This document shows positions 8,255-37,807 of a stretch of 38,615 nucleotides of DNA, piece by piece (the stretch's first letter is position 1; every line of letters starts with the position of its first letter). The translations under genes were made by a program, and so were the position numbers. The stretch is taken from UHGV virus genome UHGV-0210052; one strand, given 5' to 3'. A model generated the notes under the pieces. That model was not told where the DNA came from and ran no database searches. It saw only the letters and a list, made by a program, of their open reading frames with translations. The stretch comes from a virus.

Positions 8255-8515
8255 ATGTACAGCAAATACGACGAGGCGCAGTTTCACTTGAGACTTCCGC
8301 ATGAACTCCACGCGAAAATTAAGCAGCGTGCGAAGATGAATAACAGGTCGCTGAACTCAGAGATAATTGCAGCGATTGAAGAATCATTGGCTAAACAAAG
8401 CTCTGCATCTGTTTACATTGACGATGCAGAGCGTATGGCAGAACAACAATCTGATATGGTTAAGAAAATTGTCTTTGATACGCTCAAGGAGCTATATAAA
8501 AAAGACAGCAGCTAA
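8255..8515 (+). CDS. mnt: Mnt-like ribbon-helix-helix repressor, 86 aa
   Basis: FHLRLPHELHAKIKQRAKMNNRSLNSEI and C-terminal VKKIVFDTLKELYKK resemble P22 Mnt as recalled; GAGG SD 8 nt before ATG 8255. Confidence 0.75.
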   Translation: MYSKYDEAQFHLRLPHELHAKIKQRAKMNNRSLNSEIIAAIEESLAKQSSASVYIDDAERMAEQQSDMVKKIVFDTLKELYKKDSS

Positions 8516-24446: not shown

Positions 24447-24919
24447 ACCTCAATCTCTCTGACCGTTCCGCCTGCTTCTTTGAATTTTGCAATCAGGCTG
24501 TCAGCCTTATGCTCGAACTGACCATAACCAGCGCCCGGCAGTGAAGCCCAGATATTACTGCAACGGTCGATAGCCTGACGAATATCACCGCGATCAATCA
24601 TCGGTAAAGCGCCACGCTCTTTAATCTGTTGCAGTGCCACAGCGTCCTGGCTTTTCGGAGAGAAGTCTTTCAGGCCAAGCTGCTTACGATAGGCATCCCA
24701 CCAACGGGAAAGAAGCTGATAGCGCCCGGCTGCTGTTGATTTGAGTTTTGGGTTTAGCGTGACAAGTTTGCGAGGGTGATCTGAGTAATCAGTGAATAGC
24801 TCTCCGCCTACAATGACGTCATAACCATGATTTCTGGTTTTCTGTCGTCCGTTATCAGTTCCCTCTGACCACGCCAGCATATCGAGGAACGCCTTACGTT
24901 GATTATTGATTTCCACCAT
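24443..24919 (-). CDS. R: lambda R-type lytic transglycosylase (endolysin), 158 aa
   Basis: Sequence from [34 protein letters not shown] matches lambda R almost exactly as recalled. Confidence 0.9.
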
Positions 24920-25226
24920 CTTCTACTCCGGCTTTTTTAGCAGCGAAGCGTTTGATAAGCGAACCAATCGAGTCAGTACCGATGTAGCCGATAAACACGC
25001 TCGTTATATAAGCGAGATTGCTACTTAGTCCGGCGAAGTCGAGAAGGTCACGAATGAACCAGGCGATAATGGCGCACATCGTTGCGTCGATTACTGTTTT
25101 TGTAAACGCACCGCCATTATATCTGCCGCGAAGGTACGCCATTGCAAACGCAAGGATTGCCCCGATGCCTTGTTCCTTTGCCGCGAGAATGGCGGCTAAC
25201 AGGTCATGTTTTTCTGGCATCTTCAT
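24903..25226 (-). CDS. S: lambda S-type holin/antiholin, 107 aa
   Basis: [10 protein letters not shown] dual-start motif and three TM segments; matches lambda S as recalled. Confidence 0.9.
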
Positions 25227-33288: not shown

Positions 33289-33332
33289 TCCCGCATTTCG
33301 GCGGGAATGAGGACCATGACTGTTAAAGAGCG
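33289..33332 (-). promoter_or_regulatory. nutR (boxA CGCTCTTTAACA, boxB hairpin)
   Basis: On - strand boxA-like CGCTCTTTAACA after cro stop, then UCCCGCCGAAAUGCGGGA stem-loop; same elements recur at nutL. Confidence 0.6.
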
Positions 33333-33562: not shown

Positions 33563-33591
33563 AGAATACTACAGGTATTCAAAGCAATCAA
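33563..33591 (-). promoter_or_regulatory. PR promoter
   Basis: On - strand TTGATT, 17 bp spacer, TATTCT; overlaps OR1/OR2. Confidence 0.5.
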
Positions 33592-33628
33592 TACTCAGGG
33601 TATTTTTAGTTTAAGTACCTTAGCTATT
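33565..33628. promoter_or_regulatory. OR operator array (three 15 bp AATAC-N5-GTATT sites)
   Basis: AATACTACAGGTATT 33565-33579, AATACTCAGGGTATT 33590-33604, degenerate AGTACCTTAGCTATT 33614-33628. Confidence 0.6.
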
Positions 33629-33633
33629 AGAAT
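33605..33633 (+). promoter_or_regulatory. PRM promoter (leaderless cI transcript)
   Basis: TAGAAT at 33628-33633, 7 nt before cI ATG with no SD; weak -35 TTTAGT. Confidence 0.4.
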
Positions 33634-33639
33634 TAAGCT

Positions 33640-34356
33640 ATGGAAAATAAAAAATCACTGACGACAGAACAGCTCGAAGACGCTAAGCGGCTTAAGGCTT
33701 TGTATGAGTCAAAAAAGAAAGAATTGGGAATAACCCAATACTCAATCGCTGATGAACTGGGTATCACCCAAGGAGCGGTAGGGCATTATCTTAATGGCAG
33801 AAACGCGCTAAACGTTGAGGTTGCATCTGGTTTTGCACGATTGTTGCAAGTCTCAATTGCTGATTTTAGCCAGTCAATTGCTGCCAAGGTTGCAGAACAG
33901 GCAGAAAGCCTTAAGAGCGATGCCAACGTAAGGTATGCAGGGGAATACAGAGCAGGAAAGAGGTATCCGGTGTTAAGCAGTATCCAGGCTGGCTCGTGGT
34001 GTGAAGCATGCGAACCATACACCATTAAAGACATAGATGTTTGGCTTGAGTCTGACGCGCATATTCAAGGTAATGCGTTTTGGCTTAAAGTGGAAGGTGA
34101 TTCAATGACGGCACCGGTTGGGTTAAGCATTCCAGAGGGAACATTCGTTCTTTTCGATACCGGAAGGGAGGCGATCAACGGCAGCTTGGTCATAGCAAAA
34201 CTTTCTGACTCTAACGAAGCAACATTCAAGAAGCTGATAATCGACGGCGGAAATAAATACCTCAAGGGACTTAATCCTGCATGGCCTCTCGTGCCAATCA
34301 ATGGAAACTGCAAGATTATAGGCGTTGCAATTGAGACAAAACTAAGGCTGGTTTGA
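33640..34356 (+). CDS. cI: CI repressor (HTH N-terminus, LexA-like S24 C-terminus), 238 aa
   Basis: LTTEQLEDAKRLKALYESKKKELG, Ser/Lys dyad context (EGDSM ... FKKL); resembles lambda CI as recalled. Confidence 0.9.
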   Translation: MENKKSLTTEQLEDAKRLKALYESKKKELGITQYSIADELGITQGAVGHYLNGRNALNVEVASGFARLLQVSIADFSQSIAAKVAEQAESLKSDANVRYAGEYRAGKRYPVLSSIQAGSWCEACEPYTIKDIDVWLESDAHIQGNAFWLKVEGDSMTAPVGLSIPEGTFVLFDTGREAINGSLVIAKLSDSNEATFKKLIIDGGNKYLKGLNPAWPLVPINGNCKIIGVAIETKLRLV

Positions 34357-34373
34357 TCACGCAAGGGGCGATT

Positions 34374-34742
34374 ATGGTTGGAACCGCTATAGCAAGCTTT
34401 TTTGGGATGTTGGCAATCTCGACAATTTACGGCTTAGCGCATGCTTTTATTGCGAAATCTCTATCAGAAAAAATAAGCCAGGCTTGGGCGCATAGATCAG
34501 CTCGTTTCATGATTCTTGTGATCATAGCAATACAAGGGATATCTGCATTTATCCTCTATGGATCAAGCTTATACCTATTGTATCAAGGCGCGACATTTAC
34601 GCCTTACACCAGTGATTACGGAACTCTATACGATGGTAGTGAAGACATCACTGTGGCTTGGATCGTCTTTGGTTTATCTATGGCCGTGTCTGTTGTAGCA
34701 GACATCATTAAGGTAATTCTCGTCTTAACCTTCGCTGACTAA
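34374..34742 (+). CDS. small multi-TM membrane protein co-transcribed with cI, 122 aa
   Basis: ATG 34374 with AAGGGG SD; starts 18 nt after cI stop; three predicted TM helices; no motif recognised. Confidence 0.5.
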   Translation: MVGTAIASFFGMLAISTIYGLAHAFIAKSLSEKISQAWAHRSARFMILVIIAIQGISAFILYGSSLYLLYQGATFTPYTSDYGTLYDGSEDITVAWIVFGLSMAVSVVADIIKVILVLTFAD

Positions 34743-34828
34743 CCCATAATCCCGACAGCAATAGCTATCGGGATCCACTTCACATATCCCGCATAAAAAT
34801 CACTGAACAAGCAGACAGCGAAAAAATA

Positions 34829-34913
34829 AATATCCTTTGTATTCATTTGTTTATCATTATTTCATCAAAAATAAATACCTTGGGTATTTACACAATAAAA
34901 TACCTACAGTATT
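34829..34913. promoter_or_regulatory. OL operator array
   Basis: AATATCCTTTGTATT 34829-34843, AATACCTTGGGTATT 34874-34888, AATACCTACAGTATT 34899-34913; same consensus as OR. Confidence 0.55.
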
Positions 34914-34915
34914 CT
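34887..34915 (+). promoter_or_regulatory. PL promoter
   Basis: TTTACA, 17 bp spacer, TATTCT; overlaps OL sites; about 195 nt upstream of N. Confidence 0.5.
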
Positions 34916-34961
34916 TTAGCCATCAGCAGGACGCTGGAAGCCAAACGGAACAGATTGGCAG

Positions 34962-35109: not shown

Positions 35110-35382
35110 ATGACAGTAGTCATTACATATCTGGCTGACGATAACGCCAGAAATCGCCGCAGAGCACGCAGACAGGCTCAACGTGAACAGGCAATGCAAG
35201 AGCAGCGACTGGCACGAAAAATTGCGCTAAAGCTCTCTGGTTGCGTCAGAGCAGATAAAGCAGCATCACTCGGAAGCCTTCGCTGCAAGAAGGCAGATGA
35301 ATGCAGTGGAAGTATTTGCCTGCCAAACGTAGCCATTTACGCGGCAGGCTACCGGAAATCAAAACAACTGACAGCGAGGTAA
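35110..35382 (+). CDS. N: N antiterminator, P22 gp24 type, 90 aa
   Basis: Arg-rich N-terminus NARNRRRARRQAQREQ; C-terminus AIYAAGYRKSKQLTAR resembles P22 gene 24 protein as recalled; GGAGG SD. Confidence 0.8.
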   Translation: MTVVITYLADDNARNRRRARRQAQREQAMQEQRLARKIALKLSGCVRADKAASLGSLRCKKADECSGSICLPNVAIYAAGYRKSKQLTAR

Positions 35383-35610
35383 GTGGTGAATCAGACATAC
35401 ATTCCATCATGCTTGAGAAATCTGCCAAAGCAGAAAGCAAAGCCCCGCAAGCAAGCCATAAAGGACGCTAAGGCAGAGGTTATTGATCAAGCAATACAAT
35501 TGCTCAGGGAGGAGTTAAGAAGTGGCAAGCTCGAAGGAATGATGATGCCCTATCAGCGCGGATATCTATCGGCGATTAGTAAGTTGGAAGTATTGAAGAG
35601 TGAATTATGA
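35383..35610 (+). CDS. hypothetical protein, 75 aa
   Basis: GTG start directly after N stop; basic N-terminus, helical C-terminus. Confidence 0.4.
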   Translation: MVNQTYIPSCLRNLPKQKAKPRKQAIKDAKAEVIDQAIQLLREELRSGKLEGMMMPYQRGYLSAISKLEVLKSEL

Positions 35611-35665
35611 ACTATCTGGAATTTCCGGATGGTTCATTGTTTTGGCAGCAAGCATAGAGGTGAAT

Positions 35666-35962
35666 ATGGAATTCAAAGGTACTAAAGGTAAGTGGGAAAT
35701 AATGATGGATGGCGATGAGATTAAAATCATCCAGGCAGACTCACTTGAAAATGGCGCAGGCTGGCGTTCGTATATTGCAATCTGTGAGGAAGTTCAATGC
35801 ATTGAAGATGCCAATCTAATAGCGGCAGCACCTGACCTTCTCGAAGCACTTCAGTTATTACTTAAGCAAGCCAAAAATAGAACAACGACAACATATCCAG
35901 AATGGTATGGAGCTGTTAATAAGGCTCTCGAAGCTATCAAAAAAGCTATAGGTGATGAATAA
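35666..35962 (+). CDS. hypothetical protein, 98 aa (alternative start 35600)
   Basis: ATG 35666 preceded by GAGGTG SD; AT-rich; stop shares a base with next ATG. Confidence 0.4.
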   Translation: MEFKGTKGKWEIMMDGDEIKIIQADSLENGAGWRSYIAICEEVQCIEDANLIAAAPDLLEALQLLLKQAKNRTTTTYPEWYGAVNKALEAIKKAIGDE

Positions 35963-36150
35963 TGAAAGTAAAAATAACTGCTTCTAATACCAGTTTTGTT
36001 AGTGTTGGTGATATTACAGAAGTAATAACAAACCATGATGGAACACAAGTTATGTGGTCTGATTTCTGTAAAAGATATGAGCGAGTTAGTTGGTGTAAAC
36101 TCGTATGGGGCGTCGAATACGAAGAATTACCTGAAATGCATGACGAATAA
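35962..36150 (+). CDS. hypothetical protein, 62 aa
   Basis: ATG overlapping upstream TAA; AT-rich; followed by inverted repeat and terminator. Confidence 0.45.
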   Translation: MKVKITASNTSFVSVGDITEVITNHDGTQVMWSDFCKRYERVSWCKLVWGVEYEELPEMHDE

Positions 36151-36245
36151 GCACTGTGTATTCATTCCAACGAGTGAATACACGGAGCAATGTCGCTCGT
36201 AACTAAACAGGAGCCGACTTGTTCTGATTATTGGAAATCTTCTTT

Positions 36246-36271
36246 GCCCTCCAATGTGAGGGCCTTTTTAT
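36246..36271 (+). terminator. rho-independent terminator inside the PL operon (tL-like)
   Basis: GCCCTC-CAATGT-GAGGGC hairpin followed by CTTTTTAT. Confidence 0.6.
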
Positions 36272-36335
36272 ATGCATACCAATAACGCTTCACGAGAGGC
36301 GTTTTCGTTATGCAATCAAACAGAAGGAGCATCCT

Positions 36336-36506
36336 ATGCAACAGTTCGCTATTGCAGGGGCGGCATCGGTTCGCCCTTTCAACCCGATTTTATCGGTACA
36401 GCATTCACGAAAAAATATTTTAACCGGAGCAGACTTTAAACAACCAAGAATGAAAAGTTTGCTCGAAAAGCTTTGGGATATTTTGAAACAACAAGGCCGT
36501 CCATGA
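36336..36506 (+). CDS. cIII: CIII-like protein (FtsH inhibitor), 56 aa
   Basis: MQQFAIAG ... KSLLEKLWDILKQQGRP parallels lambda CIII MQYAIAG ... RLIDILNQPG as recalled; AAGGAG SD; track start 36231 rejected (spans terminator). Confidence 0.7.
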   Translation: MQQFAIAGAASVRPFNPILSVQHSRKNILTGADFKQPRMKSLLEKLWDILKQQGRP

Positions 36507-36610
36507 GTTTTACAGATAACTGGTCAGACGAAGAATTCATTCGTCAGATGAACAAAATGCTCAATCAGCACAAAGAACAGGAGAAAGATGATGATTCTGA
36601 CTCTGAATGA
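36503..36610 (+). CDS. small acidic hypothetical peptide, 35 aa
   Basis: ATG overlaps cIII stop (ATGA); overlaps next gene in another frame. Confidence 0.3.
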   Translation: MSFTDNWSDEEFIRQMNKMLNQHKEQEKDDDSDSE

Positions 36611-36899
36611 TAAGCGTGAAATATCGCAAATAATCGCAAGTTTTACTGATGAAGATTACGAACGAATCAACAGTGAAGTTGATCGCCTCTGCAAACGTTG
36701 CGACCCAATAAGCGAAATGCTTCGCTCATATAAACCAGATGAACACACTAAGGACGCTATCGACTGGCTGGAAGATGATGACTGTAACTATCAGGAAAAA
36801 GCCGCTGAATGGTTCTGGGATGCAATAACCGAAAGAGTTAAGGCTGAATATGCCTTCGCAATATTCAAACGCAGACACATTTTTGGAGAAGCAGCATGA
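36588..36899 (+). CDS. hypothetical protein, 103 aa
   Basis: AGGAG SD before ATG 36588; directly upstream of recT. Confidence 0.5.
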   Translation: MMILTLNDKREISQIIASFTDEDYERINSEVDRLCKRCDPISEMLRSYKPDEHTKDAIDWLEDDDCNYQEKAAEWFWDAITERVKAEYAFAIFKRRHIFGEAA

Positions 36900-37807
36900 G
36901 CAATATCGTTGAATTCGTTAAACAGCAGGAGCAGTTATTCTGCGGAGCATTGACTGAACAGACGGTGACATGGGCTAAGGAAAGCCAGTTTGCAATTCAG
37001 TATTTCCAGAAAAACGATTACCTGGCTAAAACGGCACTGGCAAATCCGACCAGCGCACAGAACGCTATCATCAACGTTGCGGCGATCGGCATCACCTTAA
37101 ACCCGGCCAGCAAACTGGCTTATCTAGTTCCGCGCGACGGCATGGTTTGCCTTGATATCAGCTATATGGGATTGCTCCATATTGCAATGGAGTCTGGTGT
37201 TATCTCATGGGGTCAGGCAAAACTTGTTCATGCTAACGATACCTATGAGTCAAACGGGCTTGATAAAGCACCAACCCATAAATACAACGCCTTCGGTGAT
37301 CGTGGTGATATCGTTGGCGTTTACTGCACAGTTAAGACGCCAGCAGGTGATTATCTAACGGAAGAGATGAGTCTGGCTGAAATTGAGGCTGTAAGGAAAA
37401 CAAGCAAGGCGGCATTCAGCGATAAAGGACCATGGGTAAATCACTGGAATGAGATGGCGCGAAAGACGGTCGTAAAGCGTGCAAGCAAGTATTGGCCTAA
37501 GGCATCACGTCTTGATAGTGCTATTCACGTACTAAACGAAGAAGAAGGTGTATGGACTGAACCAGTTATGCCGCACAAATCAGAGGAAGATATCCGCGAA
37601 GATGAACGGAAACGCCAGCAGGAAATTATGGAAAAAGCACAACTTCTTTGTGATGAAATGGCTCAGGCAGAAAACATGGATGATTTGAAGCGATATTTTG
37701 CAGAAGCATATCGCCTGACATCTGGAATGAAATTGCAGCAGAACGTACAAGCCATTTACGCAGAATGCAAAGCGAAACTGGAGGTTGCCAGTGAGCAAAC
37801 TATATGA
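36896..37807 (+). CDS. recT: RecT-family single-strand annealing recombinase, 303 aa
   Basis: GPWVNHWNEMARKTVVKRASKYWP matches the Rac RecT motif GPWVTHWEEMAKKTAIRRLFKYLP as recalled. Confidence 0.85.
   Translation: MSNIVEFVKQQEQLFCGALTEQTVTWAKESQFAIQYFQKNDYLAKTALANPTSAQNAIINVAAIGITLNPASKLAYLVPRDGMVCLDISYMGLLHIAMESGVISWGQAKLVHANDTYESNGLDKAPTHKYNAFGDRGDIVGVYCTVKTPAGDYLTEEMSLAEIEAVRKTSKAAFSDKGPWVNHWNEMARKTVVKRASKYWPKASRLDSAIHVLNEEEGVWTEPVMPHKSEEDIREDERKRQQEIMEKAQLLCDEMAQAENMDDLKRYFAEAYRLTSGMKLQQNVQAIYAECKAKLEVASEQTI

Follow-up and report, generated by a model that had tools for sequence, protein, structure and literature searches.

The stretch of viral DNA analysed here, 38,615 nucleotides long and referred to below as the window, is that of a P22-like (Lederbergvirus-type) mosaic phage with an immunity region of the coliphage HK620 type. 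Between positions 33300 and 35382 it differs from HK620 by just a handful of bases, and across 34300-34900 the DNA is 99.7-99.8% identical to that of HK620 and HZ41. The order on the plus strand is OR, the repressor gene cI, a 17-nt spacer with the sequence AAGGGG, the gene hkaS, a hairpin, a cluster of operators and PL at 34829-34922, nutL and N. The hkaS coding sequence (34374-34742, plus strand) specifies 122 amino acids and a stop codon, and was assigned from the open reading frame call, the HK620 annotation, a match to PHROG 6534 and conservation.

The operators OR1-OR3, with the divergent promoters PR and PRM, lie at 33564-33629, as mapped from the identical sequence in the HK620 annotation, and both OR1 and OR2 fit the pattern AATAY-N5-RTATT exactly. 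The cI gene (33640-34356, plus strand) is the first cistron of the immunity operon and encodes a 238-residue repressor with Pfam HTH_3 and Peptidase_S24 domains that is 99.6-100% identical to the cI proteins of HK620, mEpX2 and HZ41. A -10-like TAGAAT is found immediately 5' of the cI ATG, a position that, by analogy with lambda, suggests a leaderless cI mRNA from PRM.

A first-pass annotation of this DNA had hkaS starting 18 nt after the cI stop. The adjacency stands: 17 nt separate the cI TGA (34354-34356) from hkaS, and the first base of the hkaS ATG is the eighteenth after the stop. A Shine-Dalgarno site, AAGGGG, can be read directly from the plus strand at 34363-34368, 5 nt before the ATG. 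A stem-loop of the form TCCCGAcAGC..GCTaTCGGGA (34749-34774, plus strand) begins 7 nt past the hkaS stop and is not followed by a U-tract; the RNA fold of 34736-34860 is predicted at -20.9 kcal/mol (z = -3.0). The stem-loop likely marks the 3' end of the cI-hkaS mRNA, or may stabilise it. GC-rich hairpins occur 3' of the hkaS stop in every lineage (loci L003, L007 and L008), with unrelated sequences, such that position alone is conserved. The short gap, the separate Shine-Dalgarno site, the lack of any promoter-like site between the genes and the hairpin past the stop agree with the earlier placement of hkaS as a second cistron behind cI, and suggest that HkaS would be made whenever cI is made.

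On the far side, OL2, OL1 and PL, with which the early-left operon begins, occupy 34873-34922 on the plus strand and are identical to the HK620 annotation, so that hkaS does lie upstream of OL and PL as first described. Both OL2 and OL1 match the operator pattern exactly, and a promoter-like site is found at 34887-34915. The region annotated in HK620 as tIMM (34824-34854, plus strand) holds a further palindrome at 34829-34843, AATATCCTTTGTATT, which fits AATAY-N5-RTATT exactly and is conserved in diverged loci. Five exact matches to the pattern are present in the window (OR1, OR2, OL2 and OL1 among them), where chance alone would give about 0.2-4 according to the stringency applied. Given that the site annotated as OL3 in HK620 (34851-34867, TTATCATTATTTCATCA) departs from the pattern, the palindrome at 34829-34843 is probably the real third left operator. 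Within hkaS itself, an operator-like stretch at 34529-34543 (codons 52-57; AATACAAGGGATATC) departs from the pattern by a single mismatch; it is retained in the closest lineage but absent from the Salmonella and other lineages, and is therefore probably a chance match. On the minus strand, convergent to hkaS and starting beside the operators, 34739-34846 could encode a hydrophobic 35-residue peptide (MNTKDIYFFAVCLFSDFYAGYVKWIPIAIAVGIMG). This frame was considered as a toxin or partner of HkaS and rejected, since stop codons cut it in the Salmonella and Hafnia-type loci, and it is probably not a gene.

The N antiterminator gene (35110-35382, plus strand; Pfam N_peptide, E = 1.1e-15; PHROG 271) is the first gene of the PL operon and forms the far edge of the slot. 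The resemblance to HK620 ends right after N, and 35383-36900 instead carries small open reading frames with no Pfam match. The HK620 genes hkaQ and hkaP, the latter annotated as 'putative superinfection exclusion protein', are missing from the window. A homologue of Mnt with 49% identity was detected by tblastn at 8270-8509, the holin of the phage is encoded at 24903-25226 and matches PF05106, and a search of the whole window against Rfam gave no match.

The reading frame is not a new one. It is hkaS of phage HK620 (AAK28867.1), for which the annotated product is 'unknown', and it matches PHROG 6534, a group of unknown function, with E = 2.4e-79 across residues 1-122 of 122. The earlier statement that no family could be recognised thus survives in part: no characterised family matches the protein, but the gene had already been annotated. 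Both existing labels name the gene and do not explain its function, and none of the papers searched names hkaS together with HK620.

Several lines of sequence comparison establish that hkaS is a genuine gene. The frame is intact over 122 codons in all 80 of the loci retrieved from IMG/VR, and a length of exactly 122 codons, with zero indels, is kept by five lineages whose proteins are 52-83% identical: those of the window, Salmonella/Enterobacter, Buttiauxella, a Hafnia-type metagenome group and an unassigned Logan contig. Synonymous positions differ throughout hkaS, even within the most conserved C-terminal codons, so that constraint acts on the protein rather than on a DNA or RNA element. 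The dN/dS ratio is 0.14 between the window and locus L009 and 0.20 between loci L003 and L009; in deeper comparisons the synonymous sites are saturated. A purine-rich Shine-Dalgarno sequence lies 5-8 nt before the ATG in all five lineages, as AAGGGG in the window and as an equivalent site in the four diverged ones. Some gene callers begin the frame at a TTG at 34353; this start was rejected because, in diverged homologues, a stop codon interrupts the added segment. Together with the retained Shine-Dalgarno sequence, that comparison identifies the ATG at 34374 as the true start of hkaS.

The rate at which the gene changes sets it apart from its neighbour. Among 80 close relatives, synonymous diversity is alike in hkaS and cI, at about 0.23 per site, whereas there are 23 protein alleles of HkaS and six of cI, and pN/pS is 0.36 for hkaS and 0.04 for cI. 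In deep comparisons using the same genome pairs, dN is 0.33-0.42 for hkaS and 0.07-0.09 for cI. Amino-acid change is 4-9 times faster in HkaS than in cI. Given the intact reading frames, the low dN/dS and the higher dN, HkaS is constrained yet changes far faster than the protein encoded beside it. Such fast but constrained change is typical of genes that face other phages. The lack of a family annotation and the fairly high amino-acid polymorphism might be taken to mean that the frame is spurious or decaying and has no function, but this reading is very improbable and effectively excluded by the conservation data, namely the intact frames in every locus retrieved, the fixed length even where identity falls to 52% and synonymous sites are saturated, the conserved Shine-Dalgarno sequence and a confident helix prediction.

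HkaS is predicted to be a three-pass inner-membrane protein. The open reading frame, hydropathy analysis and AlphaFold2 agree on three hydrophobic helices in 122 residues, as the first-pass annotation had it, and from the alignment of the family AlphaFold2 confidently models a bundle of three helices, with a mean pLDDT of 89. Hydropathy places the first transmembrane helix at residues 3-27 or thereabouts (34380-34454, plus strand; helix 2-29 in the model). It is followed by a predicted cytoplasmic loop of residues 28-44 (34455-34505, plus strand) with a net charge of +3 and a short helix, KISQAWAHRxAR, modelled at 31-38. The second transmembrane helix spans approximately residues 45-70 by hydropathy (34506-34583, plus strand; helix 41-74 in the model) and contains an invariant Q54 and, at its predicted periplasmic end, a YLLY motif at 67-70. 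An acidic loop at residues 71-92 (34584-34649, plus strand), modelled as a beta-hairpin, is predicted to be periplasmic, and the third transmembrane helix with the C-terminus occupies residues 93-122 (34650-34739, plus strand), with hydropathy assigning the helix to 93-121 and the model to 89-121.

The charges of the loops suggest an orientation. Loop 1 carries K28, K33, R41 and R44, and loop 2 carries D81, D87, E90 and D91, so that application of the positive-inside rule would place the N-terminus and loop 2 in the periplasm and loop 1 and the C-terminus in the cytoplasm. A cleavable signal peptide with the motif AHA at residues 22-24 was considered and rejected; the AxA motif is not conserved across lineages, which argues that the first helix is an anchor rather than a cleaved signal peptide.

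Conservation appears to be polar with respect to this predicted topology, with the cytoplasmic face conserved and the periplasmic face variable. The residues invariant across lineages include K33, W38, H40, R44, Q54, YLLY, W96, D110, K113 and the C-terminal VLTFAD. The predicted cytoplasmic loop has a mean pairwise identity of 71%, with nine of its 17 residues invariant, and the predicted periplasmic loop one of 52%, with four of 22 invariant. Within the third helix, mean pairwise identity is 46% for the outer, periplasmic half and 80% for the inner, cytoplasmic half with the tail; the inner half, with D110, K113 and VLTFAD, is almost invariant.

The HkaS family is tiny, and its members come only from lambdoid prophages in Enterobacteriaceae. 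Among 5.8 billion proteins, a word-indexed search recovered 12 clusters, all of them close relatives at more than 50% identity, and a profile scan across 1.84 billion representative proteins recovered one full-length sequence and one fragment, with no remote relatives. Among GTDB species representatives there is a single locus, in Buttiauxella. The gene is present in 146 of 5,426 complete E. coli genomes (about 2.7%), chromosomal every time, and the identical protein is found on at least 1,000 E. coli and Salmonella contigs, always named "hypothetical protein". Carriers include prophages of E. coli, Salmonella, Enterobacter, Hafnia-type hosts and Buttiauxella, and the phages concerned have unrelated virions: podovirus HK620, the Lambdavirus HK630, mEpX2, HK140 and Stx2c phages. 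Among the loci and E. coli genomes examined, no stand-alone chromosomal hkaS was found outside a prophage immunity module.

Within these modules hkaS is closely tied to cI. It lies 17-20 nt behind cI and ahead of N in every locus examined, and the order cI-hkaS-OL-N is shared by the homologous loci of E. coli, Salmonella, Hafnia-type metagenomes and Buttiauxella (L003-L010 and L017). Each of the 146 E. coli genomes with hkaS contains it in a contiguous cI-hkaS unit, and HK620-type cI occurs alone in none. For remoter relatives of cI, the slot is empty (Serratia OS31) or filled by an unrelated soluble 200-residue protein (Erwinia phage 49). CharmingMan, with a related cI C-terminal domain (77% identity), has no hkaS, and P22 has nothing in its cI-N slot.

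In the Buttiauxella locus (L017, 1833-2869; CBCPKK010000004.1) the N-terminal helix-turn-helix of the repressor is unrelated and cro is different, and the HK620-type C-terminal (S24) domain is retained together with a 56%-identical hkaS. This mosaic indicates a recombination joint inside cI, with hkaS travelling with the C-terminal half. The linkage is probably for the most part physical, in that the immunity module captures any gene placed after cI and before its OL operators. Genes of the immunity operon have been described earlier as transferring together (PMC9836094).

Searches with the protein gave no clear match to a housekeeping or characterised phage protein, by profile or by predicted structure, both of which had been proposed as checks in the first-pass annotation. 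Pfam returned sub-threshold noise alone, with no holin family, NCBIfam returned no match, and the defence models of PADLOC-DB v2.0.0 gave no family match at E values up to 10. A sequence search of the PDB found no match to HkaS, and Foldseek comparison of the confident AlphaFold2 model to BFVD and the PDB found nothing at E <= 1e-3. Pairwise profile comparison by hhalign gave probabilities of 0.3% for P22 SieA, 0.6% for lambda RexB, 0.2% for the PF05106 holin of the window and less than 1% for 434 Hex. Finally, tblastn of P22 SieA, SieB and GtrA and lambda RexA and RexB across the window detected no homologue.

The slot between cI and N is the site of rexAB in lambda and also of BstA, Hex and Stk, each of which works differently. 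Lambda rexA and rexB lie between cI and OL, just as hkaS does, and the first-pass description of a rex-type locus is apt. RexB, encoded in the cI operon, is a multi-pass inner-membrane protein made in lysogens, and HkaS can be likened to it by slot and by predicted type of protein. The two share no sequence or profile similarity, and against the three helices predicted for HkaS, RexB is usually credited with four. RexAB depolarises the membrane and thereby excludes T4 rII and other phages. That system pairs a sensor, RexA, with a membrane component, whereas hkaS is the sole open reading frame between cI and OL and RexA is absent from the window. The cI-N slot is regarded as a hotspot of lysogen-expressed accessory and defence genes, including rexAB, bstA and hex (PMC7067206, PMC8585504, PMC3564112).

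The BstA protein of BTP1 is a defence protein encoded in the same slot of a P22-like prophage and co-transcribed with cI, with a single transcription start site for the cI-bstA operon (PMC7067206, PMC8585504). It acts where phage DNA replicates (PMC8585504). BstA differs from HkaS in that it does not belong to the small multi-pass membrane proteins and comes with a DNA element for self-immunity (aba), and no search detected similarity between them. The hex gene of phage 434 lies directly behind a related cI (about 52% identity) on the PRM transcript, and the PRM-cI-hex operon provides heterologous exclusion and reduces RecA-stimulated cleavage of the repressor, which stabilises lysogeny (PMC3564112). 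Hex is unrelated to HkaS in sequence, its N-terminus resembles a signal peptide, it lacks a multi-pass membrane domain, and its gene overlaps the end of cI. The hydrophobic, signal-peptide-like start of Hex (MIRIAALLSILLTTSANSEC; 'repressor protection protein', positions 1809-2213 of locus L099) is unexpected for a protein with a reported action on cytoplasmic RecA-mediated repressor cleavage (PMC3564112).

The best mechanistic analogue of HkaS may be P22 SieA, a three-pass inner-membrane protein that blocks DNA delivery by P22-like phages via their ejection proteins (PMC10883804). Both proteins are small and come from P22-like phages; expression from the prophage and three inner-membrane helices, as described for SieA (PMC10883804), are predicted for HkaS, the helices by hydropathy and AlphaFold2. 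SieA differs in that it is longer (162-164 residues), is encoded near gene 16 and mnt under its own promoter rather than in the cI operon, and is not homologous. Class I holins of the lambda S and P22 gp13 type are similar in size to HkaS and have the same predicted N-out/C-in topology with three helices, but they have a charged C-terminal tail and belong to the lysis cassette, whereas HkaS ends in VLTFAD without a basic tail and is encoded in an immunity operon. Beyond these phages, Sie2009, Ltp and K139 Glo are small envelope proteins encoded beside a repressor gene.

With these comparisons, the earlier suggestion that the gene is an exclusion or abortive-infection determinant, for which the evidence is its position and the type of protein encoded, is plausible. 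More specifically, HkaS is tentatively proposed to be a lysogen-expressed inner-membrane superinfection-exclusion protein, a favoured reading that still falls somewhat short of probable. Placed second in the cI immunity operon of HK620-type lambdoid prophages, hkaS would, judging from the gene layout, share the cI transcript, which starts at PRM in lysogens and at PRE while lysogeny is being established, and would be translated from its own Shine-Dalgarno site. The 122-residue product would cross the inner membrane three times, with its N-terminus in the periplasm and its C-terminus in the cytoplasm. Present in the membrane of every lysogen, HkaS could then interfere when an incoming phage forms a channel or translocates its genome, and so exclude it without killing the cell, in the manner of P22 SieA, T4 Imm and lactococcal Sie2009.

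Exclusion is favoured because HkaS has no soluble domain or partner, because its predicted outward face is variable, and because the best-characterised similar proteins block DNA entry. The variable periplasmic loop and outer half of the third helix would fit an outward surface that meets incoming phage components. As context for this reading, none of the other exclusion genes known from P22 and lambda (SieA, SieB, GtrA and RexAB) has a homologue in the window. No homology ties HkaS to any exclusion protein, however, and both co-transcription and topology are predictions. The fast change may simply mean that a small membrane protein is weakly constrained, and the most conserved surface is predicted to be cytoplasmic, which would suit a host or cI-related partner equally well. 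In addition, hkaS travels with unrelated virions, those of P22-like HK620, the Lambdavirus HK630 and Stx phages, and so is not specialised for the way in which its own type of phage enters the cell.

Alternatively, HkaS might alter a trait of the lysogen that has nothing to do with phages, such as a transporter, tolerance of envelope stress or colonisation. Predicted expression in lysogens, a membrane location and the lack of a defence-family signal would all suit such a host-physiology moron, as would its maintenance across prophages of E. coli, Salmonella, Enterobacter, Hafnia-type hosts and Buttiauxella, and there is precedent in bor and lom, lambdoid genes that are expressed in lysogens and act on host traits (PMC7067206). 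This explanation is nonetheless unlikely, given that the profile search of 1.84 billion representatives found no similarity to a host regulator or transporter subunit and that the family is confined to prophage immunity modules and never found as a lone chromosomal gene.

An abortive-infection effector would remain inert until superinfection and then form, as RexB or a holin would, a lesion or channel that collapses the membrane potential, such that the cell dies and no progeny are released. The slot is shared with lambda rexAB and the abortive-infection gene bstA (PMC8585504), the predicted topology is that of a class I holin, and an invariant D110/K113 pair and Q54 within membrane helices would suit an ion path or gating. 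HkaS has, on the other hand, no RexA-like sensor, no soluble domain able to sense infection, no similarity to RexB or to the holin of its own phage, and no charged C-terminal tail. With no partner gene and no soluble domain, a design of sensor plus effector is less likely than a stand-alone membrane blocker. Moreover, the protein is predicted to be constitutive in about 2.7% of complete E. coli genomes with no visible decay of its gene, suggesting that HkaS is not overtly toxic. An abortive-infection role is therefore quite unlikely.

A role in the lysogenic switch is quite improbable as well. Here HkaS would modulate repressor stability, RecA-dependent induction or the establishment of lysogeny, either via membrane proteases or chaperones or via the C-terminal domain of cI. 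Linkage to HK620-type cI is complete, with both genes in each of the 146 genomes, and in Buttiauxella the HK620-like cI C-terminal domain and hkaS are kept together despite a different DNA-binding domain and cro; adjacency explains such linkage, though, as hkaS is 17 nt from cI and trapped before the OL operators, and CharmingMan has a 77%-identical cI C-terminal domain without hkaS. Other occupants of the slot set a precedent: Hex lowers RecA-stimulated repressor cleavage (PMC3564112), and RexA and RexB influence the lysogenic-lytic transition, according to a preprint (bioRxiv 10.1101/2021.04.19.439022). The conserved parts of HkaS are predicted to face the cytoplasm, as would be needed, but the exposed loop offers only about 17 residues, and a binding partner of so highly conserved a domain would not be expected to change 4-9 times faster than cI.

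Related phages carry anti-phage genes at this position, which makes hkaS a reasonable candidate for exclusion, and it fits a familiar category, the lysogen-expressed accessory gene in the rex slot. A bolder proposal, and a doubtful one, is that HkaS founds a new family of single-gene defences, composed of three membrane helices only and hard-wired into the repressor operon with no sensor partner. Such a protein might block entry across virion types, or might act as a self-gated abortive switch by means of Asp110/Lys113 and VLTFAD, and it might feed back on induction as 434 Hex does.

HkaS fills the cI-N slot of a widespread immunity type, one found in about 2.7% of complete E. coli genomes and in some Stx-converting phages. 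If superinfection exclusion by HkaS proves correct, it would add a minimal and easily transferable membrane defence, and would help to explain patterns of phage resistance in lysogens, including Shiga-toxin-producing E. coli (STEC). If HkaS instead tunes induction, it would have a bearing on prophage stability and on the release of Stx phages.
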